DNA from: Candidatus Levyibacteriota bacterium
GTDB taxonomy: Bacteria > Patescibacteriota > Microgenomatia > Levybacterales > UBA12049
DNA length: 64,000 bases
Reading direction: 5' to 3'
Assembly: GCA_963722305.1 (NCBI GenBank)
Contig: CAVRKE010000002.1
Location: forward strand, 40,566-104,565
Shown here: positions 1 to 43,591 of the stretch, piece after piece
How positions within the stretch are numbered: position 1 is the stretch's first letter
Layout: the number at the start of each line of letters is the position of its first letter
Translations under genes and position numbers: made by a program
The notes under the pieces: generated by a model
What the model saw: only the letters and a program-made list of their open reading frames with translations
Database searches by the model: none
Told to the model about the DNA's origin: nothing

Positions 1-467
1 GGAAAATACATAGGATTACTACCAACGAGTACATATTTATCATAGACTTTTGCGATTCTACCCCAAAACGTTCCTTCTTCCGGAGCAGCAAGCGAACCAC
101 TATGTTCATAAACTATATATGTTTTCCCCGAATACAACCCATAAACCTTTAACCACTCTCCTCTTTTGACAGATTGCAACTCAAACATTTCGAAATGCTG
201 TGTTTCTATAATCTGCTCCAATTCTTCAAGTAATTCTTTGGCAAGTGAATCAGGATTTTTGAAATAATAGTTAACAATAAACGTTGTTCCTGAAGGCACT
301 TTAAAATCAAAAATCAACCATTCATTGAAAAGACCTGATACTGCTTCGATATTGTCCACATGCGGATCTATTTGCGTTTTCCCGAAAAACTCCTCCACAG
401 CTTTTCGCATAATGGATTCATCTTGACTTGCATACTCAATAATTTTACTCAAACGAACTTGCAACAT
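1..467 (-). CDS. Hypothetical protein, partial (C-terminus lies beyond the left window edge)
   Basis: Manual translation of the minus strand gives an open frame from ATG (reverse complement of cat at 465-467) running off position 1: MLQVRLSKIIEYASQDESIMRKAVEEFFGK... It is absent from the ORF track because no stop lies inside the window. No recognisable domain. Confidence 0.35.
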   Translation of the reverse strand, partial: MLQVRLSKIIEYASQDESIMRKAVEEFFGKTQIDPHVDNIEAVSGLFNEWLIFDFKVPSGTTFIVNYYFKNPDSLAKELLEELEQIIETQHFEMFELQSVKRGEWLKVYGLYSGKTYIVYEHSGSLAAPEEGTFWGRIAKVYDKYVLVGSNPMYF

Positions 468-675
468 ATGTATCTATTGTACTTGTAATATTTTTATCTA
501 ATCATTTTTTGTATCATTTTTCAATAAGATCCTATTACGTTTAATTTCATTTGACCCCAACGGGAGTTGAGCCATCGATCGAACCTAAACTCTCTGAGTA
601 TATACTTCAGCGTTTAAACTGTACCTTAACGATGTCCAATTTAGTATTAAAATGGTCATCGACAATTTTTAACTC

Positions 676-713
676 TTGACATAGTTTATAGTTTACTATA
701 AACTATAAACTAT
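676..713 (+). promoter_or_regulatory. Sigma70-like promoter (TTGACA 676-681, TATAAA about 17 nt downstream) overlapped by a 15-bp-arm inverted repeat ATAGTTTATAGTTTA-CTA-TAAACTATAAACTAT (681-713); putative autoregulatory operator
   Basis: Read directly from the sequence. The palindrome spans the -10 region and the ATG at 712 of the downstream HTH gene. Confidence 0.4.
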
Positions 714-1686
714 GAAAACCAATACTAGAAAACTGATCGTAGAATATATAAGGGAAAATAATCAACTTAGACCACATGACTTAGCTCGCCTACTTAAAAT
801 TAGTGGTACAGCAATCCATAAACAACTAAAAAAACTTATAGACGATGGTGAACTGGAAAAAATCGGCAAGCCACCTAAAGTGTATTACGTTTTAGCATTT
901 AAAAAAGTAACTAGGCCGGAGCTGATTAATCCGGCTTTACTTCGTACTATTAATGCAAGATATCTTTATATCTCTCCAACTGGAGAATCAAAAGAAGGAT
1001 GGGAAGGGTTTCAGGCGTGGTGCGAGAAAACAAAACAAGATCCAATAAAAACAGCGAATGAATACATCTCTACACTCAAGAAATTTGACAAGTTTAAAGA
1101 GAACGATCTCATTGACGGCATGCCAAAAATGAAAAGTACTTTTAATAAAGTTTATCTAGATAAACTTTATTATCTGGATTTTTATAGTATCGAAAGATTT
1201 GGGAAAACTAAACTTGGACAAATGCTTTTATATGCCAAACAAAGTCAAAATACAAATTTAATTAGCCAACTCATAGATCAAATCCGACCTAAAATAATAA
1301 AAATTATAAAAGAAAACTCAATTGACGGAATACTTTTTGTACCCCCAACTGTGAAACGAGAAATCCAGTTTATGAAAGAGTTGGAAAAACAACTAGCACT
1401 ACCGTCAAGAATTTTATCGGTGACAAAAATAAAAACGGAAATAATTGTACCACAAAAGACTCTTTCAAAACTTGAGGATCGAATTGAAAATGCAAGAAAA
1501 ACAATTATAGTTGACGACAAAAAAGAATATAAAAATGTGCTTCTTATTGACGACGCAGTTGGATCCGGCGCCACAATGAATGAAACGGCAAGACAAATTA
1601 AAAAAATGAGTTTGGCAAGTGGCGAAATTATCGGATTGGCTATTACTGGGAGCTTTAAAGGATTTGACGTAATTAGCGAAGTGTAA
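712..1686 (+). CDS. Winged-HTH plus phosphoribosyltransferase-domain regulator (PurR-like architecture)
   Basis: N-terminal wHTH (RPHDLARLLKISGTAIHKQLKKLIDDGELEKIGKPPKVYYVL). C-terminal PRTase PRPP-binding motif VLLIDDAVGSGATMNETARQI. Confidence 0.6.
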   Translation: MKTNTRKLIVEYIRENNQLRPHDLARLLKISGTAIHKQLKKLIDDGELEKIGKPPKVYYVLAFKKVTRPELINPALLRTINARYLYISPTGESKEGWEGFQAWCEKTKQDPIKTANEYISTLKKFDKFKENDLIDGMPKMKSTFNKVYLDKLYYLDFYSIERFGKTKLGQMLLYAKQSQNTNLISQLIDQIRPKIIKIIKENSIDGILFVPPTVKREIQFMKELEKQLALPSRILSVTKIKTEIIVPQKTLSKLEDRIENARKTIIVDDKKEYKNVLLIDDAVGSGATMNETARQIKKMSLASGEIIGLAITGSFKGFDVISEV

Positions 1687-1778
1687 TTTAGTCTTCTTAT
1701 CTCTTCTTATAAACCTCCATTAGATTCTTGAAATGAGCTAACAATGGTTCAAAATAAGGATTGCTGGCGGTACTCGTG

Positions 1779-2201
1779 CTATTCTCGAACCATATATTTG
1801 ACTAATTCCATTCCCGTTTTGACTTTTTCAAAACCAAATTTTTCGTAAAAAGAAATATTGGGAGGGTTTTCTTCCCAAGCGAATAATCCGATTGAAACAT
1901 ATCCCTTATCTTTTACTTTATCTATTAACATTTCCATAATTCTTGTTCCAATCCCCTTCCCCTGAAATTCAGGATGAACACAAATATCATAAAACATACA
2001 CATTACGCCATCTTCCATGATTCTTCCAAATCCCACCAGTGTATTTTGACTATAAGCGGTAACAATGTAGGTCGACTTTTCAAATATCTTTTGCCACTTT
2101 GCTTTATCTCTTTTCCAGCCTATCGCCTTAAATAATTCGTTAAGTTTCTCGATAGATACGCTTTCCGAATCGGAAAAAACTATATCATTTACTGCCGCCA
2201 T
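1779..2201 (-). CDS. GNAT family N-acetyltransferase
   Basis: Acetyl-CoA binding motif HPEFQGKGIGTRIMEMLIDKVKDKGY; about 140 aa, typical GNAT size. Confidence 0.85.
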   Translation of the reverse strand: MAAVNDIVFSDSESVSIEKLNELFKAIGWKRDKAKWQKIFEKSTYIVTAYSQNTLVGFGRIMEDGVMCMFYDICVHPEFQGKGIGTRIMEMLIDKVKDKGYVSIGLFAWEENPPNISFYEKFGFEKVKTGMELVKYMVRE

Positions 2202-2233
2202 ACTAATTCCATTATAGCAGTTTTTAACTAAAC

Positions 2234-2503
2234 CTTGACAAAAAACGCTTAAGAAGCTATCCTAAGAACGTTCTTTCGGGGTAATTGTGTAAGTCAAAAT
2301 CGGCGGTATACTCCGCGAGCCCAAAAGGCATGAGCTTTTGAAATTAAAGCAGCGACCGTCCTTCAATAAACTCAGGATGCTGAGCGAAGTCGAAGCATAT
2401 AGTCGGGACCGAGTCAAACTCGGCTGCGTGAAAGCAGAATAGAAAGAATTTTGAACGTTTTTAAGGCGTTCTTATTGCAATACCCCGAAGGGGGTATTTT
2501 TTT
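2234..2503 (+). promoter_or_regulatory. Promoter (TTGACA 2234-2239, 17-nt spacer, TATCCT 2257-2262) and ~235-nt structured leader ending in an intrinsic terminator (TACCCC-GAAG-GGGGTA + T7, 2481-2503) that also sequesters the SD-like GAAGGGGG; riboswitch/attenuator candidate of unknown class
   Basis: The terminator T-run abuts the ATG at 2504. Several internal hairpins (e.g. CCGAGT-CAAA-ACTCGG at 2409-2423). The downstream gene is an ECF-type S component, a gene class commonly under riboswitch control. Confidence 0.35.
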
Positions 2504-3085
2504 ATGAAAAAATTGACCACCCGCGAAATCGCTTTAGCTGCCGGCCTGGCTGCCATTTCGGCAGTTGTCCAATTAATTCACATCGGCTATCAATCACCGC
2601 AATTTGGGATGTGGATTGATTTTGTGGCAGTCACCTGGATTATCGGCATTTTCCTTTTTGGATCCCGCATGGCTTTTATCGTTTCTGTCGTCGGGACAAT
2701 TTTTATTGCTCTTTTTGCACCCGATACCTGGCTAGGCGCATCAATGAAATGGCTGGCAAGCTTCCCTGTTTGGTTTTTACTTGGAGTCTGGATTTTTAAA
2801 AAAGGCCAGGCTTTTGAGTATTATAAAAAATGGCAAAGGCTGCTTATTCCGCTTTTTATTGCCATTGTTATCCGCTGTTTGATTATTATTCCCCTGAACT
2901 ATTTCTACGCCATCCCGATTTGGACCGGCTTAAGTCCCACAAAAGCGATGGCGGTAATCCCCTGGCAAATAATCGCAGTCTTTAACATTATCCAAAGCTT
3001 CGTTGACGTCGGAGTAGCTTGGCTTTTGGTCTACAAATTTGGGCTAAACCGTTTTGCTCCTTTTAATCAGACAAAAAAAGACTGA
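2504..3085 (+). CDS. ECF-transporter substrate-specific (S) component-like membrane protein
   Basis: 193 aa, about 6 TM segments, N-terminus MKKLTTREIALAAGLAAISAV typical of S components. Directly followed by an ABC ATPase and a T-like protein. Confidence 0.45.
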   Translation: MKKLTTREIALAAGLAAISAVVQLIHIGYQSPQFGMWIDFVAVTWIIGIFLFGSRMAFIVSVVGTIFIALFAPDTWLGASMKWLASFPVWFLLGVWIFKKGQAFEYYKKWQRLLIPLFIAIVIRCLIIIPLNYFYAIPIWTGLSPTKAMAVIPWQIIAVFNIIQSFVDVGVAWLLVYKFGLNRFAPFNQTKKD

Positions 3086-3087
3086 AT

Positions 3088-3825
3088 ATGAAAAACGGAA
3101 TAATATTGCAGGATATTTCGGTAAGTTATCGGTCAGGGATTTCACAGCTTAAAAATATCTCCGTGCAAATTCCAAAAGGGACTTTTTTGGGCATTACGGG
3201 CGTAAACGGATCCGGAAAAACCACTTTCGCTCTACTTTTAAACGGACTTATCCCTCACGAAATACCGACGAAATTAAACGGAAATGTTTTTGTCGACGGT
3301 GTGAATACTAAGAAAAAACCGGTCGCTTATTTTGCCGATAAGGTTGGCATGCTTTTTCAGAACCCGGATTTTATGTTGTTTAACCTGACCGTTTTTGCTG
3401 AAATCGCTTTCGGACTTAGTAAGCAAACTGATATTGACAATAAAGTCTTCGAAGCTTTGGGAATGGTGGGTCTTAAGGGCTTTGAGAAACGCGATCCGCA
3501 AACCTTGTCTTTAGGCGAAAAGCAGAAGGTCTGCCTGGCAAGCGTCTTAGCCAGGGACTCTGAATATATCGTCCTTGATGAACCGGTGGCAATGCTTGAC
3601 TACAAAGGCGCAGTCAGTCTTTATGAACTGCTGATGAAACTGAATCGACACGGAAAAACGATTATTGTGATTGAGCATGATACGGATTTCTTACTTAAAT
3701 ATGCCAAACGGGTTGTAATTTTAGAACAGGGCGAAATAGTTTCTGCCGGAAAACCAACTTCCATTTTTTCACACAGAGAGCAATTGAAAAAATTAGGAAT
3801 CAAGATCCCCCAACCGATATTATGA
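3088..3825 (+). CDS. ABC transporter ATP-binding protein (ECF A component / CbiO-like)
   Basis: Walker A GVNGSGKTT, ABC signature LSLGEKQKV, Walker B IVLDEP, H-loop IEHD. Confidence 0.85.
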   Translation: MKNGIILQDISVSYRSGISQLKNISVQIPKGTFLGITGVNGSGKTTFALLLNGLIPHEIPTKLNGNVFVDGVNTKKKPVAYFADKVGMLFQNPDFMLFNLTVFAEIAFGLSKQTDIDNKVFEALGMVGLKGFEKRDPQTLSLGEKQKVCLASVLARDSEYIVLDEPVAMLDYKGAVSLYELLMKLNRHGKTIIVIEHDTDFLLKYAKRVVILEQGEIVSAGKPTSIFSHREQLKKLGIKIPQPIL

Positions 3826-4999: not shown

Positions 5000-6579
5000 A
5001 ATTGGGCAAAAATATCTTTATTTTGTCCCGGTAAATAAACAGTATCGATAATGTTCGGAGCTGATTTTATTCCATAATACGCACGGATATACAAGGTTGA
5101 ACCGGTTGTCCAATTTTTTGGTTTTTGCCAGGAAGGAGAAACGACCAACGGTTTAAATTTATCACCGGTATAAAATCCAAAATAAAGCGGTATTGTCGAA
5201 GCCCCCAAATTACTGTCAACCACAATATGCTGGAATTCTGGCTGGTATTTTACCGCTTTTGTGACCATTTGTTCATTCCCCGCTCCCCAATCAAGACTGT
5301 TGATAATCGGATAATGCTGGTAATAAAAGTGCAGATAAAAAATAAATTCATAAACAATAAACAACATTATTACGCAGGCTACTAAAATGCGTTTGCCTTT
5401 TAAAAGTTTTCCCATTGCCCAGAGAAAACCATAGGCAACCATTATCGTTAAAGGAACCACCATTAAAAGTGACCTTAACGTGTGGGGACTGGGTACTGTT
5501 GCGGCGGCAGAAAATGGAACAGCAAAGAGCAGGGCAAAAACTGTCAGACTGAAAGGACTTTTCCAGTTTTTGATAAAGAAATACAAACCGATAAGCAGAA
5601 ATGGAAATTCCCAATATGGCATCGGCCCAAAACCGGCTATTTGGTGTCTGCCGATTCCGTCGCCAACGTTAAACAGGAAATTTAAGGAAAAATAGGAAAG
5701 GTAGTTACTTAAAAACATTAGCGGGTAATGAATTATTTTTTCTATTAGCGAAAGATTTGCGTATTGGCTAAAAGCCGAAGTTTCCGCAAAGCGTGTCATG
5801 CCTGCTCCGGTCAGAGTAAACATAATCATTGGGGTAATTAAAATTACGAAAAATATTGAACTTAAGATAATTCCTTTGAGCATTTGTCTTTGTTTAACAA
5901 TAAAAATAACGGCAATAACTAAAAAAGTAGCCGGAACCAAAAGCCTGTAAGCATTATAGGAATAAGTCGTTAAAGCCAGAGATAAAAAGCTTAAAATGAG
6001 TAAGAATAACTGCTTTCTTTTATACGCCAAGATTGCACAAAGTAGTCCGAAAAGATAGAAAGGTAAAGCAATAGTGGCATCAAAACCGGCTCGGGAAAAT
6101 TGGAGGTGCCAGGGGGAAATCGCTAAAAAAAGAGTCGCCGTTAAAGCCAGAATCGGCGGAGCATGTGGCAAATATTTTTTACCAAGCTTGGCCAACTCTT
6201 CAACCAGCCAATAAAAAATTAAGAGTGTTAAAATTCCGCTAACCAGTGCCGGAAAACGGACGGCTAAGTCCGTTCTGCCAAAAATGGCAGTGCCTAAGGC
6301 TGAACCATAAACAAACGCCGGCATTTTATATTCGCCAAAAGCCTTAAACCACAACGGATATCTGACACCATGTTCATCTACGCCTTTAGTTAAAATTGTA
6401 TAGCCGTTATAAGCATCCGATATTTCATCGATGTATAAACCGGGGGGAACAGCCGGCACTTTATAAAGTCTTAAAAAAACACCCAGGGCAAAGATGAGAA
6501 AGAGAAACCAGTACTTATGTTTTTCCACAAAACCAACTGTCATCTCTCTCATTAAAGCCGAAGACCATTCAGAAGTCAA
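4987..6579 (-). CDS. GT-C fold membrane glycosyltransferase (GT39/ArnT/PMT-like)
   Basis: 530 aa polytopic protein with a first-loop acidic motif (PGLYIDEISDAYNGYTIL) typical of the ArnT/PMT_2 family. Confidence 0.6.
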   Translation of the reverse strand: MTSEWSSALMREMTVGFVEKHKYWFLFLIFALGVFLRLYKVPAVPPGLYIDEISDAYNGYTILTKGVDEHGVRYPLWFKAFGEYKMPAFVYGSALGTAIFGRTDLAVRFPALVSGILTLLIFYWLVEELAKLGKKYLPHAPPILALTATLFLAISPWHLQFSRAGFDATIALPFYLFGLLCAILAYKRKQLFLLILSFLSLALTTYSYNAYRLLVPATFLVIAVIFIVKQRQMLKGIILSSIFFVILITPMIMFTLTGAGMTRFAETSAFSQYANLSLIEKIIHYPLMFLSNYLSYFSLNFLFNVGDGIGRHQIAGFGPMPYWEFPFLLIGLYFFIKNWKSPFSLTVFALLFAVPFSAAATVPSPHTLRSLLMVVPLTIMVAYGFLWAMGKLLKGKRILVACVIMLFIVYEFIFYLHFYYQHYPIINSLDWGAGNEQMVTKAVKYQPEFQHIVVDSNLGASTIPLYFGFYTGDKFKPLVVSPSWQKPKNWTTGSTLYIRAYYGIKSAPNIIDTVYLPGQNKDIFAQFWKL

Positions 6580-18533: not shown

Positions 18534-19454
18534 ATGAATAGTCCGAAACCAAGCCTTCACAAGCTTATCTATCACCACTTAAGATATACCAGACCACAAT
18601 GGTATAGGGATTACCACAAGTGGAAACACGTTGATACCCTGCATTGGCTGACGCTTATTTTTTCCTCCTTTGCAATTGTGGTCGGATTTATGAACGCCTT
18701 ATTGTTAATACAACAGTCTCCCTTGAATTCTACTTATGCCGCTTCCGGAACAACCACTATCAGTCAGCAAGTTAACGCCGGAACGCTCAATATCAGTACC
18801 AATACCAGTTCTACCTTAACGGCCGTGACTGTCAACGCCACCTCCAGCCAATCTTCTACCGGTAACCTTGGCACATTAACTGTTACCGATAACCGGGGTT
18901 CGGGTGTCGGCTGGTCTTCAACCGCCACCAGTAGCGACTTCACCTTTATTAACGCGGCGGTAAAAGTGTCCGGCTCAAATAGTACGGTCACTTCCGGAGG
19001 AACCTATACTAATTCAACCGCCGGCACTTATACGATTACCATTACTACCGGCGGAGCGGTTGGGGTGGCCAAATTTAGCGTAGCGGGCTTAGAATCCGCC
19101 TCCAACCAGACTACCGGCACAGGAGTAGCTATTGGCACCAGAGGCGTAACCGCGACTTTTGGTACCGCCACCTACGCACTTAGCGATTCCTGGACGATTC
19201 GGGTGGATACAATACCGGTAACTAATTTAATGCTTACTCCCAATACTTTTACCACCGTCGCCGGTTCCTCAACCGGTGTTAGTAACGGAACCGCGCATAC
19301 TTTTACCACCACTTCAGACCCGGCAACTATCATTACCGCCTCCTCGGGCAACGGAATGGGCTCTTATTCGGATAATCCGGCCCTACAGCTGACTGTTCCG
19401 GCTGCATCTTATGCAAATTCTTATACGGCAACCATTACCGAAACCGTCAATTAA
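18534..19454 (+). CDS. WxL-like cell-surface protein (CscB-like paralogue)
   Basis: Paralogue of the 13428 gene: DNRGSGVGWSSTATSSDF and ALQLTVPAASYANSYTATI. Confidence 0.5.
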   Translation: MNSPKPSLHKLIYHHLRYTRPQWYRDYHKWKHVDTLHWLTLIFSSFAIVVGFMNALLLIQQSPLNSTYAASGTTTISQQVNAGTLNISTNTSSTLTAVTVNATSSQSSTGNLGTLTVTDNRGSGVGWSSTATSSDFTFINAAVKVSGSNSTVTSGGTYTNSTAGTYTITITTGGAVGVAKFSVAGLESASNQTTGTGVAIGTRGVTATFGTATYALSDSWTIRVDTIPVTNLMLTPNTFTTVAGSSTGVSNGTAHTFTTTSDPATIITASSGNGMGSYSDNPALQLTVPAASYANSYTATITETVN

Positions 19455-19458
19455 AAAT

Positions 19459-21051
19459 ATGCTTAAATTACTTTCCAGATTTAAGAAACAATTCGTAATC
19501 GGCTTGTTTTTGTTTTCTGCCTTAGTTTTTTTCTTCAGTGTCAGTCGTACTTTTGCCGCCGAGGGAAACCTGGGGGCATATCCGACCAATTTTGACGAAA
19601 GCAATCCGAAAACCAAATCCTGGTTTATTTACCAATTAAAACCGGGCGAGTCAAAAGACGACAGCATCACAGTTGTTAATAATTCCGATAAAGAATTGAG
19701 CGTTAGAGTATATGCTGTTGATGCCACCACCACCAGTGACGGGGCCTTTGCCCTTCTCAATGAAAACCAAAGGCAGAATGATGTCGGCAGCTGGGTCAGT
19801 ATCTCCAAGGATGTCATTACCATTGCACCGAGAAGCCGCATCGATGTGCCCTTTACTATTTCTATTCCCAAATACGTTACTGTCGGAGATCACGCCGGCG
19901 GGATTATTGTTCAAGAAGCAACCGCTCCTACAGCCGCTAATGCAGGGATGGCCTTGAATATTGTCTCCAGAGTCGGCACCAGGATTTACGAAACAGTACC
20001 GGGAGACAAAGTGATTAAGCTGGACCTGACCGGTTTTGCTTACAAAATTATCGACACGCATCTGGTTTTTACTTTTAATTTGGTGAATCAAGGCAACGTG
20101 ATTTTAAATCCAACCGGAGACTTGGAAGTTAAAGACTATACCGGTAAAACGATTGATAAGATTACCCTCGGCAATTTGGGTTCGGTTTTTCCCGGAAAAC
20201 CGACCGCTATCACCGTCGCATCCACCCAGACCGCTCCTATATTTGGGCAATATACGGCAGTGGCAACTGTCAATTATTCTCCGATCGAGTCTATTTCTAA
20301 GAGCTTAACGTTCTTTATTTACGTCAACGACTGGCGCTACGCCTCAATAATTCCACTGGCGCTATTGGCACTCTTGATTTTATTTAGAGTGCGTAAAATT
20401 ATTCCTTCCTGGTTTAGAAACCGCCGCAGATTTACCGACACCGTAATTCCCGCGCCCCAACCGGCTCCGGCCATTGCGAAAAGCGTGGGAAAGAAACACC
20501 AGAAAGAACCGCTTATTTTAGCCGAGGAGCAAGCTATACCGGAAAATTACGTCGACAGTTTATTTGTGGCGCACCACCTTAAACTACTGGTTATTCTAAA
20601 CGCAATTGTTATCGTAGTCCTTAGTATTTTGTTCGGATTTATCTTGCAATCTTCGGTAATTACGAAAATAACTTCGGCTGCAAACGGTAATAATCCTTCC
20701 CTACCCGCTTCTAATGTTAATCCCCAGCCGACGGCTGTTCCGCCTCCGGCTGCACCCCCAGCCTCTGCCCCGGTGCCGACCGTAGCAAAAGCGGATATGC
20801 AAATTCAAATCTTAAACGGAGGCGGTGTGATTGGCGCTGCCAAAGCTTTAGCCGACAAACTAACCGCGGCCGGTTTTAACATCACCCAAATCGGCAATGC
20901 CGCTACCGAATCGGCCCAAACAATTGTTGAATATCCTGATCTGCAAAGTTCGGGAACAAACCTGTTAATCAATGCCTTGGAACCCGATTATTCAAATGTG
21001 GTAGAACAGTCCACCGATTCCTCTTATTTTGTAATCATTATCGGGAGATAA
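19459..21051 (+). CDS. DUF916-like surface protein with TM segment and C-terminal LytR_C-type domain
   Basis: KSWFIYQLKPGESKDDSITVVNNSDKELSVRVYAVD (DUF916-like), TM helix, Pro-rich linker, C-terminal MQIQILNGGGVIGAAKALADKLTAAGFNITQIGNA...IVEY (LytR_C-like). Probable start ATG 19459 (MLKLLSRF) 4 nt after the upstream stop. The ORF track gives 19411. Confidence 0.5.
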   Translation: MLKLLSRFKKQFVIGLFLFSALVFFFSVSRTFAAEGNLGAYPTNFDESNPKTKSWFIYQLKPGESKDDSITVVNNSDKELSVRVYAVDATTTSDGAFALLNENQRQNDVGSWVSISKDVITIAPRSRIDVPFTISIPKYVTVGDHAGGIIVQEATAPTAANAGMALNIVSRVGTRIYETVPGDKVIKLDLTGFAYKIIDTHLVFTFNLVNQGNVILNPTGDLEVKDYTGKTIDKITLGNLGSVFPGKPTAITVASTQTAPIFGQYTAVATVNYSPIESISKSLTFFIYVNDWRYASIIPLALLALLILFRVRKIIPSWFRNRRRFTDTVIPAPQPAPAIAKSVGKKHQKEPLILAEEQAIPENYVDSLFVAHHLKLLVILNAIVIVVLSILFGFILQSSVITKITSAANGNNPSLPASNVNPQPTAVPPPAAPPASAPVPTVAKADMQIQILNGGGVIGAAKALADKLTAAGFNITQIGNAATESAQTIVEYPDLQSSGTNLLINALEPDYSNVVEQSTDSSYFVIIIGR

Positions 21052-21116: not shown

Positions 21117-21647
21117 TTATATTTGCGGTGTGGCAACGGCAACAAACCTCTTGCTATCCAAAAACCCGGTGCAGGTATAAATGGTGATTCTACTGTCTTT
21201 TGTTTGCGCTAAAATATGCGTCTCATTGGGGTCGACTACCGAAGTAAACTGAATCACAAACGTTCTTGTTTGCCCGTTATTTAGAACAATTTGAATCGTT
21301 TGCCCCGGTTTCATATTAGTCAATTTACCCAGCAGACTTATCCAATTATGTCCGTATAAAATGCTGTTGCCTCTGGCGCCCGGAACCGGAGAGGATAAAA
21401 GATAAGAAATACCCTTATCGGTTGTTTCCCATTGCCCGTTGGTAATTTTTGCACCATAGATTCCTTCGTCTATTTTTTGTGACGGGATAATTATCCTCAC
21501 GGGAATTAAATTTGAACTCGAAGCACTAACTACTTTTAGATTGTTGAATTCAATTGTTTTTGGACTGTAACGCTGAAAAACCAAGTAGGCACCAAAAAGT
21601 AGTAATAATAGGCCTGAGAAAATTAGAAATTTAGAAGAGAGGCTCAT
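21117..21647 (-). CDS. Sortase (small, class A/E-like)
   Basis: N-terminal TM anchor. Catalytic His in ILYGHNW, Cys in RITIYTCTG (TLxTC-type), Arg in KRFVAVA. Confidence 0.75.
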   Translation of the reverse strand: MSLSSKFLIFSGLLLLLFGAYLVFQRYSPKTIEFNNLKVVSASSSNLIPVRIIIPSQKIDEGIYGAKITNGQWETTDKGISYLLSSPVPGARGNSILYGHNWISLLGKLTNMKPGQTIQIVLNNGQTRTFVIQFTSVVDPNETHILAQTKDSRITIYTCTGFLDSKRFVAVATPQI

Positions 21648-21660
21648 TTTTTCCTTCCTT

Positions 21661-22302
21661 TTATTGCTTTTTCTTTAAAGCCGAAAGAACTCCGCCGCCA
21701 AGCAAAGCCAGCCCCAAGGTGAATACGCTTAAGATAAAGACGATGTTACCGGTTGAAGCCAGTCCAAGCACTGCTTGTGTTGAAGCAGCTAAAACCTGCG
21801 GTGCCTGGGTGCATGACGGACAACTGGATAATCCATCACTTCTTCCGTCTCCACCGCCGCCTCCGCCACCGCCGCCACCCGAATTTGAAGAAGGAGCGCT
21901 GCAGCTATAGCTTAAGTTTTGGGCCAAATAAGGAGCTGCTTCTAATCCCCAGGCCGAACCGTCGGGGATATAAATCCAACCCTGATTAACTAAAACGTCT
22001 TTTTGGTCCTCTGTTAAACTGGATATTTTCCACCAGTTGGTTTGTATTCCACCACCGTTAACGGTACATAAACACTGCGTGACGGTTGCCTCATCCAAAG
22101 TATAAACCGTATCGCTTCCTGTATAAGTGGTGCTGTCTCCCGGTACGCCATGGACTCCGTCCGCGTAGCTTACCGTTACATCTCCTTGGGGATTAAGACA
22201 AGCGGGAAAAGTGGGAGAAACTACGGCGTATGCCGGTCTAACAAAAGCCGATAATAAAATTGCTATTGACAATACCTGTAAAAATAAATACTTGCCTGAC
22301 AT
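21661..22302 (-). CDS. Secreted Cys-containing protein with poly-Gly tract and C-terminal LAxTG-type sorting signal (putative sortase substrate)
   Basis: Signal peptide. GGGGGGGGGGG tract. C-terminus LASTG + hydrophobic segment + KKKQ. Confidence 0.5.
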   Translation of the reverse strand: MSGKYLFLQVLSIAILLSAFVRPAYAVVSPTFPACLNPQGDVTVSYADGVHGVPGDSTTYTGSDTVYTLDEATVTQCLCTVNGGGIQTNWWKISSLTEDQKDVLVNQGWIYIPDGSAWGLEAAPYLAQNLSYSCSAPSSNSGGGGGGGGGGDGRSDGLSSCPSCTQAPQVLAASTQAVLGLASTGNIVFILSVFTLGLALLGGGVLSALKKKQ

Positions 22303-22604: not shown

Positions 22605-22847
22605 ATGGCACAAACACATCTTGTAAACGCTAAAGGGAATATTCATTCAACCAAAACGGTTTCGGATCACTTGATGCAAGAGCTGATTAGCGCCATGAAA
22701 GACGTGGACGCTTTTGGTAGCGTGGAGATTATGATTCAAGATTATGCGGTGACGCAAATAACGCACCGTTGCATTAGAAAAACAAATGGCTTCCATGAGG
22801 AAGAAACCATAAAGAAAATGAGTTACAAAATGCACCCGGAAGAATAA
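22605..22847 (+). CDS. Small YezD/DUF2292-like protein
   Basis: 80 aa. GSVEIMIQDYAVTQITHRCIRKT resembles the YezD motif. Followed by a strong terminator. Confidence 0.4.
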   Translation: MAQTHLVNAKGNIHSTKTVSDHLMQELISAMKDVDAFGSVEIMIQDYAVTQITHRCIRKTNGFHEEETIKKMSYKMHPEE

Positions 22848-37310: not shown

Positions 37311-37718
37311 ATGAAAAAGGCAGGGTTTTTGGTTATTCCTCTGCTGCTTTTAATCTTTTCTGCTCATTCTTCTTTTGCCGATAATGTACAAACCGGCAAT
37401 GTCGTAGACGCCCAAAGTACGGTTGAAAATAATGTCCAGGGAAGCGGTTCTGTTACCACCCATATCGAAACCTCGGCCAACGGACAAACCAATGTGATAG
37501 ACACCAACGGCAACGGCACGGTAAACGTCACTAACAACAACGGTAATGTGAGCATCACTAAAACTCCCGACGTAAACATTACCCAAACCCAAGTTGAGAC
37601 ACAAATTTCCACCCCAACACCAAAAATCACGCCGCCAATTATTCATAAACCTTCCTTGATGTCAAATATTTTTACCAACATTACCGATTTCATCAAACGC
37701 GTATTTCGCGATCTCTAA
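37311..37718 (+). CDS. Secreted Asn/Thr-rich small protein (hypothetical)
   Basis: Signal peptide MKKAGFLVIPLLLLIFSAHSSFA. N/T/V-rich low-complexity sequence. Confidence 0.4.
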   Translation: MKKAGFLVIPLLLLIFSAHSSFADNVQTGNVVDAQSTVENNVQGSGSVTTHIETSANGQTNVIDTNGNGTVNVTNNNGNVSITKTPDVNITQTQVETQISTPTPKITPPIIHKPSLMSNIFTNITDFIKRVFRDL

Positions 37719-37736: not shown

Positions 37737-38813
37737 ATGAATTTTAAAAAATCTATAATCGTGGCCGCTGCGGGAACGCTATTATTTGGAGCTCTTGCAA
37801 CCGGCGTCTTCGCGACCTCGGGAAATTTCAGAGACTGGAATTGGTTCCAGCATAATAATCACTATAACGGTAATAATAAAAATTTCAATGCCGATATCCA
37901 GCTGCAGAAATCACAGTGTGGACAAAATTTAGGCAAACCAATTATTGATGTAACGTTAAAGACTCAAAATGATGTTGATGACGGATACAACACTAACGCC
38001 GACAACGTTGAGAGTAATTGGGCTTTTGATTATTACAATAAACATATCCAGGTCTGGCCAACCGGGACATGGAACGTAACAGGAACATATACGTTCGATA
38101 CTATATACTTAGGCAACCCTTATAACTATTCCGTAACTTTGTCTCAAAGCGTAAATATAATTACGGGTAGTTTGGACGATAGCTATGGACCGGGCGTATT
38201 GCCTATAATTAATGGTTCCTTATCCGGTAATACGATTACGTTTTCGGTGAACTATGGTTCCAGTTCTTCGCAAGGTACAAGAACCTTTACGGGCACCATT
38301 GATTCGTCCGGACACATGACGGGTAAATGGACCGAAACCGGACCGGAAAAAGGTTCTGACACCTGGTCAGCCACAGTCGGAGTAGCGACAATCAGTAATA
38401 GTTACTGTGCTGTTGTTACTTATGACGGGCAATTCTATGCCATCCCGGGACAACTTAGTCCTGGTTACGGATACAATGCCCAAATTGGTTCGCCTGTAAA
38501 TGGCGATATGGACGGAGGATATAGAGCGACTTTCAATGCTACTTTTGCGCCAAGCGATTTACCGAACTGGCCAACAAACGGAAAAGTTGCATCAACTATT
38601 AATAACGCCTGCGTAGTTTATCTTAGCAAGGATAACGGAAATAACTGTAAGGGCGCTGTTGATTGGTTAAGTAAATACTTTACTTCCACAGAAGTTCCGG
38701 CTTTTAATTCTTTTAACGAAGTATGGTGGGGCTGGAAATATGATGGCGGAAGTCATGGAACTTGGATTGACGCAAGCGATCTTACAAACGGAAGCTTGGG
38801 GAATATCCAATAG
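37737..38813 (+). CDS. Secreted hypothetical protein
   Basis: Signal peptide. 358 aa, Gly/Asn/Thr/Trp-rich, with no recognisable catalytic motif. Confidence 0.4.
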   Translation: MNFKKSIIVAAAGTLLFGALATGVFATSGNFRDWNWFQHNNHYNGNNKNFNADIQLQKSQCGQNLGKPIIDVTLKTQNDVDDGYNTNADNVESNWAFDYYNKHIQVWPTGTWNVTGTYTFDTIYLGNPYNYSVTLSQSVNIITGSLDDSYGPGVLPIINGSLSGNTITFSVNYGSSSSQGTRTFTGTIDSSGHMTGKWTETGPEKGSDTWSATVGVATISNSYCAVVTYDGQFYAIPGQLSPGYGYNAQIGSPVNGDMDGGYRATFNATFAPSDLPNWPTNGKVASTINNACVVYLSKDNGNNCKGAVDWLSKYFTSTEVPAFNSFNEVWWGWKYDGGSHGTWIDASDLTNGSLGNIQ

Positions 38814-40058: not shown

Positions 40059-40716
40059 TCCTTTTTTGTCTGTCCATTACTTTTACCTCTAAATCATAAT
40101 TCCTACGGCTTTTGTAAATTAAGCCTATTCCCCCGGGTAATTTATGGGTTGTGACCCGCGTCGCATGATCTACGATTTAGGACGTACACTTGTGGTTCGA
40201 GTCTTGAGCCGGAGGAAAATTCAGTATCGCTGGACTAATCACGGAGTATAATTCCTAGTAGCTGGAAACCCTTTGCTGATAGAGAAGATTTATCGTCTTC
40301 TCTGCAAGTTTATCCAGCAAACTATTGTAAACTGCTAAAAATTTAGCAGATATCTTTAATAAAATGTTAACCCGTATGCTGTTTCTTTTCATATCTTCAA
40401 TCTATAACCCTTACCTTAAATTTTGCTTAAAACTTGTAGCTTGTCTTTTTCCAATTGCCAATAGCCTACTACAGTTTACGTCAAATATTGCTCCACCGTT
40501 TTTTCTGCTTGACAAAGCAATCTAAAAGAGATAAAGTTTACCTACACTAAGTCTGCCTCATTGTTAGGAACTGTCCACGAATCATCTGCCAACTGCCAAA
40601 AAAATCTACTGCCTGGTTAATTAAAAATTAATTTAGGAACAGAAAAATTTAAAAAAATCTTTAGACTTATGGATTCGACAAATAACGGAAACTTATTTGT
40701 TAAGAGGCTAAGTGCA

Positions 40717-40757
40717 AACCGATGTTTATATAGCGGAGATAAAGCATCGGTTTTTTT
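40717..40757 (+). terminator. Strong intrinsic terminator (AACCGATGTTTAT-loop-ATAAAGCATCGGTT + T7)
   Basis: Read from the sequence. Ends a ~700-nt non-coding stretch. Confidence 0.6.
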
Positions 40758-40814
40758 GTGGAAAATACATAAATTTAATTAATTAAACTTATGACGAAGG
40801 GAGGTGAAATATAA

Positions 40815-41231
40815 ATGAAAAAACTTTTAATAACAGGAGCAGCCGCAGGACTTTTATTAGTTTCTGCAGCAGCAGCTTTTGCTAAACCACCTATGCCAGG
40901 AACATCCAACATGGCATTTGTTACCAGCAACGTTAGCGCATCTTCCGTAACAGGAGGAAATAGTACCAGCGCAACTTGGGGTAGCAATAGAGTTACAACG
41001 GGAAATGCCTACTCAACAGCAGGAGCAGGTACTCTTGCTAATACAAACGTCGGAGGCGGAAACGCATCCAATACTGCGTTTGTTCTCAGCAATGTTGGTG
41101 CAGGTTCCTCAACAGGAGGAAACTCGACAGTCGCATCTGGGTTTGGTAGCAATACCGTTACAACGGGAAATGCCCACTCAACAGCAGGAGCGCTGACCGT
41201 GGTTAACACCAACCTGTCATTCGGTAGATAA
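40815..41231 (+). CDS. Small secreted protein made of two ~50-aa N/T/S/G-rich repeats (novel repeat family)
   Basis: Signal peptide. Repeat units NMAFVTSNVSASSVTGGNSTSATWGSNRVTTGNAYSTAGAGTLANTN and NTAFVLSNVGAGSSTGGNSTVASGFGSNTVTTGNAHSTAGALTVVNTN. Confidence 0.5.
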   Translation: MKKLLITGAAAGLLLVSAAAAFAKPPMPGTSNMAFVTSNVSASSVTGGNSTSATWGSNRVTTGNAYSTAGAGTLANTNVGGGNASNTAFVLSNVGAGSSTGGNSTVASGFGSNTVTTGNAHSTAGALTVVNTNLSFGR

Positions 41232-41407
41232 ACCGAAATTCTTTTTTGTCCCTGGGGAAGAGGTATGCCTTAGGCACTCTTCCCCGGGACGAAAGAATTT
41301 ACCCTGTTAAATGCTATAGCGCTGCACCAGCTTTGCCGGTATTTAACAGGGTGAACCCGCAGGGCGGGAAGATTTAAGAAATAAGATTTAGGATTTAAGA
41401 ATTAAAA

Positions 41408-43591
41408 ATGAAAAGACAATTTAGAAAATCAATCGCACTGCTCTTAACAGTATTCTTACTGTTTTTCTACGTGGCTTATCCGGTGCTGTCTTACGCCCAG
41501 GACGTTCCGACCGATACGCCAACGCCAACAGTTGATCCTTCGTCAAGCTCAGGACCTTCGGCGCCGACTGATACTCCGACACCAACCGTTGACCCTTCGG
41601 TAACGGACACGCCAACACCAACAGTTGATCCGACAGCTACCGACACTCCAACACCAACCATTGATCCATCGGCAGATCCTACTGATACGCCAACGGTAAC
41701 TCCGACCGATACGCCAACACCTACCACCGACATTTCTAACAATGCTGACGTTAACGACAATAGTCAATCGGATGCCAATAGCGGCGACAATACCATCATT
41801 AGTACCGGCAGTGCAACCGATGATGCCACCCCTTCGGCCGATGACAATTCCCAAAATCCAACCGATGACTCAACGGGAGCAGGTCAAAACGGTTCTTCAG
41901 CTGGCTCATCAATTAACACCGGCGACGCCACTTCGTCAACCTCGATTGTTAATGATGTCAACACTAACTCTATAAATTCCAGCGTTGTCAACCAAACGCT
42001 GAACATTTTTGTCGCCCAAAACGGCGACCTGAATTTGTCCGACCCTTTCACGATTGCGGCCGACGCCATTTCCGCTCATCCGCTGGACAGCGTCATTAAC
42101 GTTTCCGTCACCAATGTCAATAACTATGCCTATATTACCAACGACGTTGCCTCACAAGCTTTAACCGGACAAAACTTGATCAGTACCGCCGACCAAAGCG
42201 CTTCGCTGACTACCGGAAGCGCCGACAGCGCAGTTTCGCTTTTAAACAAAGTCAATTTTACGGTGGTTAATTCGCAAATCCATTTGGTGACAATAAACAT
42301 TTTTGGCAACTTAAACGGCAACATCATTTTGCCCGACCCAACCGCTTCGACCAATTGTTCTGGTTGCGGTGTAAGTACCACTATTAATAATACCGCTACG
42401 GTTAACAATAATCTTAGCTCAACTGCCGATACCGGTAATAATTCAATTGTGGCCTCAGGCAGCGCCACCATTGTAACCGGAAATGCCCAAAGCGCTGTTA
42501 ATACTTTAAACATTGTTAATACCAATCTCTTAGGCGCTAATGCCGAAGTTTTATATATTAACGATTTAGGGACTTGGAATGGCAATTTTATCGGCTGGGG
42601 TAATTTTGCGGCGACCAGTGGCGGAGGAAGCCTGGTCCTTTACAGTCTTACTCCCGGCGCAGGCGGCTCTCCAACCGACCTGACTCAAGCCGGCATTACT
42701 AATACTGCTTTTGTCACTAACAACGTTTCCTCTTTGGCTTTAAGCGGCGGCAATTCGATTAACGGCGGGAATTCTTCGATTACCACCGGCAATGCTTTCA
42801 GCGCCATTTCTTTAATGAATTTTATTAACACTAATTTTATCAACTCGTTTGGTTTTTTTGGCTTTATTAATATTTTCGGTAACTGGACCGGCAATATTGG
42901 CGGAGCCAGTCAGTTTGCCGCTTTGAATGCAGCCAATTCCGATACTTCCCCATCCAGCGACTCGGGGACCGGTAACGCAAATACGACTCAGGACCAAGGC
43001 GGACAGCTAAGTATTGATAATACCAATAATGTCGGCTTATATGCTTTACCCGGCGATACGGTCACATTCTTCATGACAATTAAAAATAGCGGAACCGGTA
43101 AAGTTTATGGGACAAAACTAAACTTGACGCTTATGCATAACGGTCAAGCCTTAGGAACAGCCAGCTTTGCTTTGGGTGATATTGCCGGAGGGCAAAGTGG
43201 AAAAGTCACCACCGGCATTGTTCTTCCCAAAAATACTCTTCCGGGCTATTACATTGCGGTCGCAGATGTTAGCGGCAATGTCGGACCGGACAACAGTTCT
43301 GTTTCGGCCAACTCCAATAGTGACTTTACGGTTTTTGGTAGGACCATTGTCGCCGCTGCCAGCTATAACGGTGGCAACCATCCAAAAACGGCTGTTTTAG
43401 GCTCGACAAATAAAAAAGGTCTGGCTATTAAAAGCGCTGCTGAAAACTTGCTCTATCTTTCCTTAATTTTCCTACTGCTTTTTGTCTATTTCTCTTTAAG
43501 ATTAATCAGAGGCAGAAAATATCTGCTTGAAGTAATCTCCAGCCCCAGTTTTAAAGAAAAACTGGTCTCGATACGGATGCTGCTTTTATAA
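41408..43591 (+). CDS. Large surface protein: signal/TM, Pro-Thr repeat linker, at least 4 copies of the same N/T/S repeat, DUF11/CARDB-like domain, C-terminal TM anchor
   Basis: PTDTPTPTVDPS x6. Repeats such as NTAFVTNNVSSLALSGGNSINGGNSSITTGNAFSAISLMNFINTN. DUF11-like LYALPGDTVTFFMTIKNSGTGKVYGT. C-terminal LYLSLIFLLLFVYFSL. Confidence 0.55.
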   Translation: MKRQFRKSIALLLTVFLLFFYVAYPVLSYAQDVPTDTPTPTVDPSSSSGPSAPTDTPTPTVDPSVTDTPTPTVDPTATDTPTPTIDPSADPTDTPTVTPTDTPTPTTDISNNADVNDNSQSDANSGDNTIISTGSATDDATPSADDNSQNPTDDSTGAGQNGSSAGSSINTGDATSSTSIVNDVNTNSINSSVVNQTLNIFVAQNGDLNLSDPFTIAADAISAHPLDSVINVSVTNVNNYAYITNDVASQALTGQNLISTADQSASLTTGSADSAVSLLNKVNFTVVNSQIHLVTINIFGNLNGNIILPDPTASTNCSGCGVSTTINNTATVNNNLSSTADTGNNSIVASGSATIVTGNAQSAVNTLNIVNTNLLGANAEVLYINDLGTWNGNFIGWGNFAATSGGGSLVLYSLTPGAGGSPTDLTQAGITNTAFVTNNVSSLALSGGNSINGGNSSITTGNAFSAISLMNFINTNFINSFGFFGFINIFGNWTGNIGGASQFAALNAANSDTSPSSDSGTGNANTTQDQGGQLSIDNTNNVGLYALPGDTVTFFMTIKNSGTGKVYGTKLNLTLMHNGQALGTASFALGDIAGGQSGKVTTGIVLPKNTLPGYYIAVADVSGNVGPDNSSVSANSNSDFTVFGRTIVAAASYNGGNHPKTAVLGSTNKKGLAIKSAAENLLYLSLIFLLLFVYFSLRLIRGRKYLLEVISSPSFKEKLVSIRMLLL
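41500..41725 (+). repeat. Imperfect tandem DNA repeats (~33-36 bp units) encoding the PTDTPTPTVDPS linker
   Basis: Repeated CCGAC(C/T)GATAC(G/T)CCAAC(A/G)CCAAC(A/C)GTTGATCC units are visible in the sequence. Confidence 0.5.

Follow-up and report, generated by a model that had tools for sequence, protein, structure and literature searches.

Two adjacent genes in the analysed stretch of DNA (64,000 nt, hereafter the window) encode exported proteins that share an all-beta repeat of ~48 residues, rich in N, T, S and G. Both ORFs were confirmed, and the features of the pair lie on the + strand: the small gene (138 aa, 40815–41231) is followed by the large gene (727 aa, 41408–43591). To our preferred reading we give slightly better than an even chance. 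It holds that the pair are structural proteins of a Levybacteria-type (Microgenomates, CPR) bacterium, and that an anchored scaffold and an abundant secreted short paralogue would assemble into a surface structure.

The initial annotation placed two copies of the repeat in the small protein and at least four more in the large one, and profile searches agree with it. The two small-protein copies are in tandem (residues 31–78, 40905–41048, HMM i-E 4e-25; and residues 85–133, 41067–41213, i-E 2e-24). Three of the four large-protein copies are recognized as contiguous by HMM, and the fourth is interrupted by an insert. The consensus begins with a long strand (N-x-A-x-V-x-N-x-V-x-S-x-A) and a T-G-x-N turn, and continues with two short strands on either side of a variable loop; a T-G-x-A turn then leads into a second long strand, which ends N-x-V-N-T-N. 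The motif first proposed for the repeat does not hold literally, as it fits no copy and some of its spacers are wrong by 1–2, but a relaxed form fits exactly the five contiguous copies and matches nothing else when the window is translated in all six frames. BLASTP aligns the small protein with the large one in three places (E 2e-15 to 3e-13), and hhalign relates the two families with 97.9% probability (E 5.8e-13). A small-family profile, built from homologues only and leaving out the window's own small protein, scores 76.8 bits against residues 100–520 of the large protein, compared with a mean of −46 and a maximum of −31.2 for 500 block-shuffles. The repeat common to both proteins thus stands far above a composition effect. 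N and G are also conserved at specific positions across 71 and 21 sequences.

Within the libraries searched, the repeat is a genuine, previously uncurated domain family, as had been suspected when it could not be assigned to a described one. No family for it was found in Pfam (2025 copy; whole proteins to E ≤ 1, single repeats to E ≤ 10) or NCBIfam r20, and PDB gave no match to it either by sequence (single proteins and profiles) or by fold. Judging from profile matches, the repeat extends beyond this gene pair and belongs to a large Patescibacteria-wide family: 1,235 cluster representatives (clusters at 50% identity) match at E ≤ 1e-3 across Patescibacteria, Ca. Paceibacterota included. Most of these representatives are large proteins with three to six copies, while small proteins with two or three bare copies make up 12 of the 147 top new matches, several of which have Cys pairs of the kind usual in extracellular proteins. 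For the large protein itself there are at least 265 homologues of ~700 aa, none of them annotated, and with source names that go no further than Levybacteria, Microgenomates or Patescibacteria. Among ten wider relatives scanned, seven carry DUF11 over the Pfam cutoff, C-terminal of the repeats. A nearby 135-aa protein (37311–37718) was considered as a half-repeat member and rejected, 18 of 300 shuffles scoring equally.

The gene order, small before large, is kept in all seven loci inspected (i.e. the window, L003, the contig of P0008, L005, L006, L007 and L008), and the pairing is independently backed by neighbouring locus tags (Q8P80_02505/02510 and C4559_03930/03935). The surroundings are those of a cell-surface locus: a Pfam scan of ~30 ORFs in the window found a sortase (21117–21647) and a protein resembling a sortase substrate, along with WxL and WxLIP proteins and GH16; glycosyltransferase genes, like GH16, lie close to the pair. 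The spacer between the two genes is strongly structured (whole-spacer dG −76 kcal/mol, z −7.4) and contains a long GC-rich hairpin (41243–41295) and a second stable hairpin (41298–41355). The long hairpin is also present in L003, L005, L006, L007 and L008 (z −4.1 to −5.1); the second is missing from all five of these relatives, whose spacers are shorter. A role of the long hairpin as a canonical terminator was rejected because its U-run lies before the stem, and Rfam gave only sub-threshold chance matches, on the hairpin, for the spacer and the 750-bp upstream region. The small gene is preceded by the Shine–Dalgarno sequence GGAGGTGA (40800–40807), 7 nt upstream of its ATG. Among the window's 52 ORFs, 8-nt matches occur in only two, the small gene included, and matches of at least 7 nt in only three; the large gene has none. 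Taken with a putative role of the hairpin, this ribosome-binding site suggests that the small protein may be made in excess.

Both proteins had been described as secreted, and each indeed begins with a Sec-type signal peptide. That of the small protein (MKKLLITGAAAGLLLVSAAAAFA, 23 aa, 40815–40883) is unusually conserved across its family, with 12 invariant positions within residues 1–23 (n = 11 sequences), while the mature parts of the homologues are only 31–88% identical to the window protein. In view of this conservation a SipW/TasA-type signal was considered, and no NCBIfam match was obtained. The rest of the protein consists of two bare repeat cores and has no membrane anchor. Its mature part is nearly uncharged, with N, T, S and G making up 62% of residues and N, T, S, G or A 74%. 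A word-indexed search found ten close homologues, and a broader profile collected 78 small proteins of 74–284 aa (mostly 128–215 aa). In a genome scan with the small-family alignment, signal peptide included, the only species-representative genome matched was that of a Levyibacteriota MAG. The first copy is modelled by AF2 as two short strands enclosed by two long ones, the pattern also modelled for the repeats of the large protein, in a monomer of low confidence (pLDDT 57.6) that is too uncertain to serve in fold comparison. A need for a partner could account for this poor model, and a shallow alignment could do so just as well. On its antisense strand, too, the small gene is largely open, and in two relatives gene callers picked that strand.

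The large protein has a modular architecture. Its signal peptide (residues 1–30, ending LSYA|Q; 41408–41497) corresponds to an AF2 helix at 2–23 and is conserved in homologues. It is followed by a Pro/Thr-rich region (41498–41734; pLDDT <50), for which the initial annotation had described a sixfold linker encoded by tandem DNA repeats. Six TDTPTxT cores are present in the protein, but at the DNA level there are only three contiguous 36-nt units, and these are only 68–92% identical, so the DNA repeats are old and diverged. The length and PT content of this region vary widely between homologues, a variability seen at family level only, since the other copies of the window's linker that were found are identical to it. 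A stalk would not usually be N-terminal and distal to the membrane as this region is, which counts against the preferred reading.

Four repeat units come next. Unlike the tandem copies of the small protein, each lies within a unit of ~90–105 aa that also holds a conserved hydrophobic element ('..INIFGNxNGNI..'), which is present in every large-protein unit and absent from the small protein in the alignment of units. In unit 1 (residues 110–228, 41735–42091) the core is split by a ~20-aa acidic insert and followed by a hydrophobic extension and a helix; HMM half-matches (110–137 and 158–187) are weak alone, and the profile matches 106–137 and 157–196. The cores of units 2 (residues 238–283, 42119–42256, HMM i-E 9e-12, not in the seed), 3 (residues 327–373, 42386–42526, i-E 5e-23, also by hhalign and profile) and 4 (residues 431–476, 42698–42835, i-E 2e-23, also by profile) are uninterrupted. 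AF2 models the repeat region as all-beta (pLDDT about 80–90) with strands of 11–15 residues. Beta-solenoids consist of short regular coils (about 18–30 aa) stacked in a helix, and the modelled strands would argue more for a hairpin or meander sheet than for a classical solenoid.

C-terminal to the repeats lies a CARDB-type, Ig-like beta-sandwich (residues 534–642, 43007–43333). The DUF11/CARDB-like domain proposed earlier is borne out by a CARDB match (PF07705) of 23.4 bits against a cutoff of 22.7 (E 7e-5), reported for the C-terminal domain scanned in isolation and not for the full-length protein; DUF11 (PF01345) reaches 14.7 bits, under its cutoff of 24.6. Neither model matches the repeat region at E ≤ 10 (residues 228–511 scanned alone). 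The chain ends with the expected membrane anchor, a transmembrane helix (residues 681–697) followed by a basic RLIRGRK patch and a conserved tail ending in FKEKLVSIRMLLL (43448–43588 altogether). All these are conserved in homologues, and AF2 places C-terminal helices at 670–701, 703–711 and 715–726.

Taken together, these features suggest how the pair might work. The large protein would be exported by its cleavable signal peptide, held by the transmembrane helix with its basic, positive-inside stop, and perhaps processed further at a VLG motif that is conserved in the family. Seen from the membrane, the Ig-like domain would come first, then the four repeat units and finally a flexible tip rich in Pro and Thr, with the extra hydrophobic strand of each unit covering the repeat core. 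We infer that the small protein, secreted in excess owing to its perfect ribosome-binding site and the conserved hairpin, may dock on the anchored protein at its homologous units, or polymerize from these units, via beta-sheet pairing. The outcome could be a surface coat or fibre serving envelope structure or attachment. A more specific version, in which the two-repeat subunit, abundant and nearly uncharged, polymerizes in a functional-amyloid-like manner through stacking of beta-sheets on an anchored, homologous nucleator sorted by an undescribed VLG-type sortase signal, giving a CPR-specific fibre or coat, is in our view unlikely. If true, surface filaments of monoderms would gain a new class, and Microgenomates a candidate attachment apparatus.

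Other explanations have to be weighed against co-assembly. That the repeat similarity is an N/T/S/G low-complexity artefact and the small ORF no real gene is highly improbable: the composition bias is strong and the gene's antisense frame is open, but the shuffle control and the positional conservation of N and G contradict it, as do the conserved signal peptide, the + strand ribosome-binding site and the 78 homologous small proteins. A rather unlikely alternative is that duplication has given two independent surface proteins with a common domain that do not co-assemble, the large one being a free-standing anchored adhesin or envelope protein and the small one a soluble binder of, for example, host or matrix glycan. 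Adjacency and common repeats also fit two paralogues acting separately, many superfamily members are large proteins with pairing known from the inspected loci only, AF2 is confident about the large protein's repeat region as a monomer, and GH16 and glycosyltransferase genes are nearby. Yet the small-to-large order and the spacer hairpin are strict in every locus examined, and the small protein, with its poor monomer model, lacks exactly the covering strand that each large unit has.

The VLG motif raises another question, namely whether the large protein is a sortase substrate. V-L-G (residues 663–665, 43394–43402) lies 15 residues before the transmembrane helix; L664 is invariant and V663 and G665 are ≥90% conserved (n = 71 sequences). 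The motif occurs 11–30 aa before the helix in 81 of 92 family members, compared with 0 in a control window. The protein encoded beside the sortase has, in the window, L003 and L005, a C-terminus made up of (A/Q)VLG(L/A)S, a hydrophobic segment and a KK-rich tail; that of L006 has AVQGLS in place of the VLG form, and in L008 a large surface protein upstream has several VLG motifs, with no sortase seen in that stretch. In L003, L005, L006 and the P0008 contig a sortase gene is found within 2–4 kb upstream of the pair, and sortase is near-ubiquitous in Microgenomates (PMC6744442). Cleavage at VLG as a non-canonical signal could link the large protein to peptidoglycan in the manner of a pilus base, with the small protein bound non-covalently; the latter cannot be a sortase-polymerized pilin because it has no sorting signal. 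We consider this scenario unlikely, since the large protein contains no LPXTG or LAXTG-type motif or known variant and matches no NCBIfam sorting-domain model, the distance from motif to helix is long, the window's sortase is 19 kb from the pair, and no literature on a VLG sorting signal was found. Moreover, the 23-residue tail beyond the basic patch (30 residues beyond the helix in all) is conserved although cleavage would discard it, and a conserved tail past a basic stop-transfer sequence is atypical of sortase substrates.

Much of bacterial diversity belongs to the CPR/Patescibacteria, which are believed to live attached to other cells and whose exported proteins mostly lack annotation. 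The repeat defines a large surface-protein family (>1,200 clusters at 50% identity) that is in no curated library or solved structure searched, so that thousands of proteins now called 'hypothetical' would gain an annotation from its curation. With its conserved pairing, the long/short gene pair offers a definite candidate, open to testing, for a structure of the envelope or of attachment in Microgenomates, and VLG is a possible non-LPXTG sorting motif. Our analysis also exposes a systematic annotation error, in that gene callers sometimes take the antisense ORF of the small gene.

We finally compared the pair with known systems. At its C-terminal end the large protein has a domain of the type found in DUF11, CARDB and TIGR01451 'conserved repeat domain' proteins, and wider relatives have a clear DUF11 in the same position, one being labelled as TIGR01451 family by its source. 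These models cover only the Ig-like domain of ~110 residues, not the family-defining repeat region of ~400 residues. The large protein recalls LPXTG-type sortase substrates of Gram-positive bacteria in its succession of a short conserved motif, a hydrophobic helix and a basic patch and, in relatives, in nearby sortase genes, but the basic patch is followed by the extra conserved tail, the spacer is longer, and the candidate motif is VLG(A/S/T) instead of LPXTG or LAXTG.

Resemblance to curli (CsgA/CsgB; Curlin_rpt, PF07012) and Fap lies in a small secreted N/G/S/A-rich protein with imperfect strand-turn-strand repeats and G-N turns, whose gene adjoins that of a surface-bound paralogue; in curli and Fap this paralogue nucleates. 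Homology with curli was rejected: hhalign of the small-family profile against E. coli CsgA gave 0.05% probability, Curlin_rpt had no Pfam match (whole proteins E ≤ 1, single repeats E ≤ 10), and the S-x5-Q-x-G-x-G-N-x-A-x3-Q motif is absent from the pair. Curli also require the outer-membrane channel CsgG. No csgE/F/G-type secretion genes were found among the ~30 window ORFs scanned with Pfam, all ORFs flanking the pair included. CPR are without a Gram-negative envelope (PMC6744442).

The pair has no sequence relationship with chaplins (no PF03777 match; whole proteins E ≤ 1, repeats E ≤ 10). It has another motif, a ~48-aa unit, a polar instead of hydrophobic composition and no LAXTG signal, and its long form adds a CARDB domain and a PT region; amyloid fibres at the surface are a chaplin trait. 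Chaplins of Streptomyces comprise long forms with a sortase anchor (ChpA–C) and short forms (ChpD–H), which together build a surface layer or fibres on a monoderm envelope with sortases. The likeness, as a functional analogy only, lies in this division of labour: in both systems, long anchored proteins carry a small beta-forming domain in several copies, and short secreted paralogues consist essentially of that domain behind a signal peptide.

Two adjacent plus-strand genes, lying where the initial annotation had placed them, encode secreted proteins of 138 aa (40815–41231) and 727 aa (41408–43591) that share an Asn/Thr/Ser/Gly-rich, all-beta repeat of ∼48 residues. At the N-terminus of the small protein, MKKLLITGAAAGLLLVSAAAAFA forms a Sec-type signal peptide whose cleavage site reads A-F-A; the rest consists of two tandem ∼48-residue copies (residues 31–78 and 85–133). 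N, T, S and G make up 62% of the mature protein (74% including A), which has three basic and zero acidic residues. In the signal peptide (40815–40883), 12 of 23 positions are invariant among 11 sequences, a conservation far above that of the mature part; this is unusual for the Sec type and may point to a dedicated recognition step for the small protein.

BLASTP aligns the small protein with three places in the large one (E = 2e-15, 2e-14 and 3e-13), and hhalign, run between the alignments of both families, reports a probability of 97.9% (E = 5.8e-13), pairing both small-protein copies with two consecutive large-protein units save for a ∼32-column insertion in the large protein. Because both proteins are compositionally biased, a control profile was built from small-protein homologues only, with the window's own sequence excluded, and scored against shuffles. 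It scores 76.8 bits on residues 100–520 of the large protein, whereas 500 local-composition-preserving shuffles average −46 and reach −31.2 at most. The similarity exceeds chance, and there is next to no prospect that it is a composition artefact. The motif formula first proposed matches nothing in its literal form, some of its spacers being slightly off; when relaxed, it finds exactly five uninterrupted copies and no other match in the six frames of the 64-kb window.

A repeat HMM seeded with four clear copies recovers both copies of the small protein and, in the large protein, the seeds at 327–373 and 431–476, a copy independent of the seeds at 238–283 (i-E = 9e-12) and a fourth interrupted by an acidic insert (110–137 and 158–187), so that the count of at least four copies stands. 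The insert comprises ∼20 residues in the loop of unit 1. The AlphaFold2 model of the large protein (71-sequence alignment) has a mean pLDDT of 70, with ∼80–90 in the repeat units, >90 in the C-terminal domain and low values only in the Pro/Thr-rich (PT) region and linkers. Each unit spans ∼90–105 residues and contains (i) a long strand (N-x-A-x-V-x-N-x-V-x-S-x-A) followed by a T-G-x-N turn; (ii) two short strands flanking a variable loop, then a T-G-x-A turn; (iii) a second long strand terminating in N-x-V-N-T-N; and (iv) a third long strand, i.e. a conserved hydrophobic extension (x-I-N-S ... I-N-I-F-G-N-x-N-G-N-I). Asn and Gly occupy the majority of invariant positions in the family. The small protein holds only the first part of this unit, twice, and ends directly after N-T-N; its model has the same strand pattern at low confidence (pLDDT 57.6).

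The PT region follows the signal peptide of the large protein and is the most variable stretch among its homologues. It does contain six TDTPTxT cores, as initially described, but the tandem DNA repeats said to encode them exist only in part: just three 36-nt units are contiguous and copies are 68–92% identical, so the array is old. Inside this region an additional first-half motif (..N-S-A-x-V..S-x-T-G-x-N..) is present in some homologues (e.g. P0014) and in the family consensus but not in the window protein (41735–41900 compared); a crude regular-expression count finds first-half-type motifs in the N-terminal region of 51 of 116 family members.

No family in the libraries searched accounts for the repeat, as the initial annotation had supposed. 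In Pfam-A (2025 copy), neither whole protein has a match at E ≤ 1, and even at E ≤ 10 the repeat-only region, single repeats and the mature form of the small protein have none; NCBIfam release 20 returns only noise; PDB sequences give no match to single-sequence or profile queries; and no description was found in the literature on CPR surface proteins, sortase signals and amyloids. Curli units are also N/G/S/A-rich strand-turn-strand elements with G-N turns, but the likeness is superficial (hhalign probability 0.05%) and kinship was rejected.

A word-indexed search recovered 10 small-protein homologues and at least 265 large-protein homologues, the latter all ∼700 aa, all 'hypothetical' and named as Levybacteria, Microgenomates or Patescibacteria. 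An exhaustive HMMER search with the mature small-family profile against 1.84 billion cluster representatives matched 1,235 proteins at E ≤ 1e-3 (480 at E ≤ 1e-10). The best 150 of these 1,235 include 147 new proteins, most of them 600–1100 aa with 3–6 copies; 12 are small with 2–3 bare copies, and several of these 12 have Cys pairs that separate the copies. With a subsequent profile search, the small family grew to 78 clusters. In a Pfam scan of 10 of the 147 new proteins (eight large, two small), seven large ones carry DUF11 above the cutoff C-terminal to the repeat region, one of them together with a peptidoglycan-binding domain. Since one divergent member comes from Ca. Paceibacterota, the repeat occurs in at least two of the major CPR lineages. 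It defines a genuine, widespread and uncurated family among CPR surface proteins, in which a long/short gene pair is conserved.

The surface location, CARDB domain and C-terminal anchor of the large protein hold as first described. Its C-terminus runs ..TAVLGSTNKKGLAIKSAAEN, LLYLSLIFLLLFVYFSL, RLIRGRK and YLLEVISSPSFKEKLVSIRMLLL in succession and comprises a conserved VLG motif (43394–43402, +), a spacer, a transmembrane helix, a basic stop-transfer and a conserved tail. Among the 92 family members in which a simple hydropathy scan detects the helix, 81 have VLG 11–30 residues ahead of it, compared with 0 for a control window taken from another part of the proteins. Similar ends, i.e. (A/Q)VLG(L/A)S, a hydrophobic stretch and a Lys-rich tail, occur in proteins encoded next to sortase genes: at 21661–22302 (−) beside the window's sortase (21117–21647, −), and in relatives' loci in an fn3 protein (L003, 5694–6455), a 155-aa protein (L005, 2712–3179) and a 143-aa protein with AVQGLS (L006, 4159–4590). 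In L008, a large surface protein encoded upstream of the pair (19–3402) has several VLG motifs and then the same kind of anchor. The recurrent signature in sortase neighbours and the large repeat family can be written as (A/Q/T)VLG(A/L/S)(S/T), 10–25 residues, a hydrophobic helix and a basic tail; no description of it was found in the literature. Since such ends adjoin sortase genes and sortase is near-ubiquitous in Microgenomates (PMC6744442), VLG may be a lineage-specific, non-LPXTG sorting motif. The large protein could then be a sortase-processed, wall-anchored variant, which is compatible with the main reading but improbable, as sortase substrates do not typically have a conserved tail such as its 23 residues past the basic patch.

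The small gene precedes the large one in all seven loci inspected (the window, L003, L005, L006, L007, L008 and the contig of P0008), and neighbouring locus tags in two NCBI MAGs independently confirm the adjacency. The N/T/S/G/A codon make-up leaves the small gene's reverse strand mostly stop-free, and gene callers annotated an antisense ORF in L006 (5410–5853, −) and L007 (5453–5881, −), where the true plus-strand gene is intact with its conserved signal peptide; the corresponding window ORFs are 40775–40987 and 41009–41212 (−). Protein databases therefore contain too few members of the small family, which partly explains its apparent rarity.

An 8-nt Shine-Dalgarno (GGAGGTGA) lies 7 nt upstream of the small gene, and the large gene has none; only 3 of 52 window ORFs have one of ≥7 nt. 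With a dG of −76 kcal/mol (z −7.4), the 176-nt spacer between the two genes forms two very stable hairpins, one at 41243–41295, conserved in five relatives, and one at 41298–41355, with only sub-threshold chance matches in Rfam. Hairpin 1 was rejected as a canonical intrinsic terminator: its U-run precedes the stem and none lies downstream, so it may rather be an mRNA-end stabiliser or a processing site (e.g. for RNase III). The Shine-Dalgarno and the stable, conserved hairpin suggest that the small protein is made in excess. The 750 bp upstream (40059–40814) contain no ORF ≥60 aa, one promoter-like site (40509–40537) and no Rfam match. In L006, a (CTTAAAA)n tandem repeat (∼5930–6000) lies directly upstream of the large-gene homologue.

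Elsewhere in the window, genes for a WxL-domain protein and a WxLIP_PGBD + LytR_C protein (18534–21051, +) adjoin the sortase and its substrate-like neighbour (21117–22302, −), forming a Firmicutes-style surface-protein cluster in a CPR genome. A DUF2292/YezD-like protein (80 aa; 22605–22847, +) recurs in L003 (7635–7877), L007 (5123–5359) and L005 (4933–5100); its gene directly precedes the small repeat gene in L003 and L007, lies two genes upstream in L005 and is 18 kb away in the window. Window and L003 copies are 88% identical, whereas the repeat proteins of both loci share just 43–52%. Two secreted proteins lack a family: one of 135 aa (37311–37718, +), whose homologues adjoin sortase in L003 and L005 and whose match as a half-repeat carrier is not statistically significant, and one of 358 aa (37737–38813, +), whose 8-nt Shine-Dalgarno, the window's only other, suggests high expression.

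In brief, the repeat observation is confirmed with minor corrections, and its interpretation is partly supported: the novelty of the repeat, the surface location, the CARDB domain and the anchor hold, and a fibre or adhesin is a candidate function. Of the two exported proteins, the large one is held by its C-terminus and exposes the CARDB domain, four repeat units and a PT-rich tip, while the small one is free, nearly uncharged and consists of two repeats without the hydrophobic covering strand of each large-protein unit. The gene pair is conserved, as is the hairpin in its spacer. We propose that the small protein, produced in excess, would use beta-sheet pairing either to bind the anchored protein's homologous units or to polymerise from them, yielding a coat or fibre. 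That the two are independent paralogues that do not co-assemble seems rather unlikely, though clearly the most credible of the alternatives. The repeat family is valuable for annotation and the gene pair is a testable candidate envelope or attachment structure; it would be a conceptual surprise only if co-assembly into a new fibre type proved true. The closest known logic, with no homology, is that of the Streptomyces chaplins, of which the long forms are anchored and multi-domain and the short forms secreted and single-domain; CsgB/CsgA, likewise not homologous, is a looser analogue.
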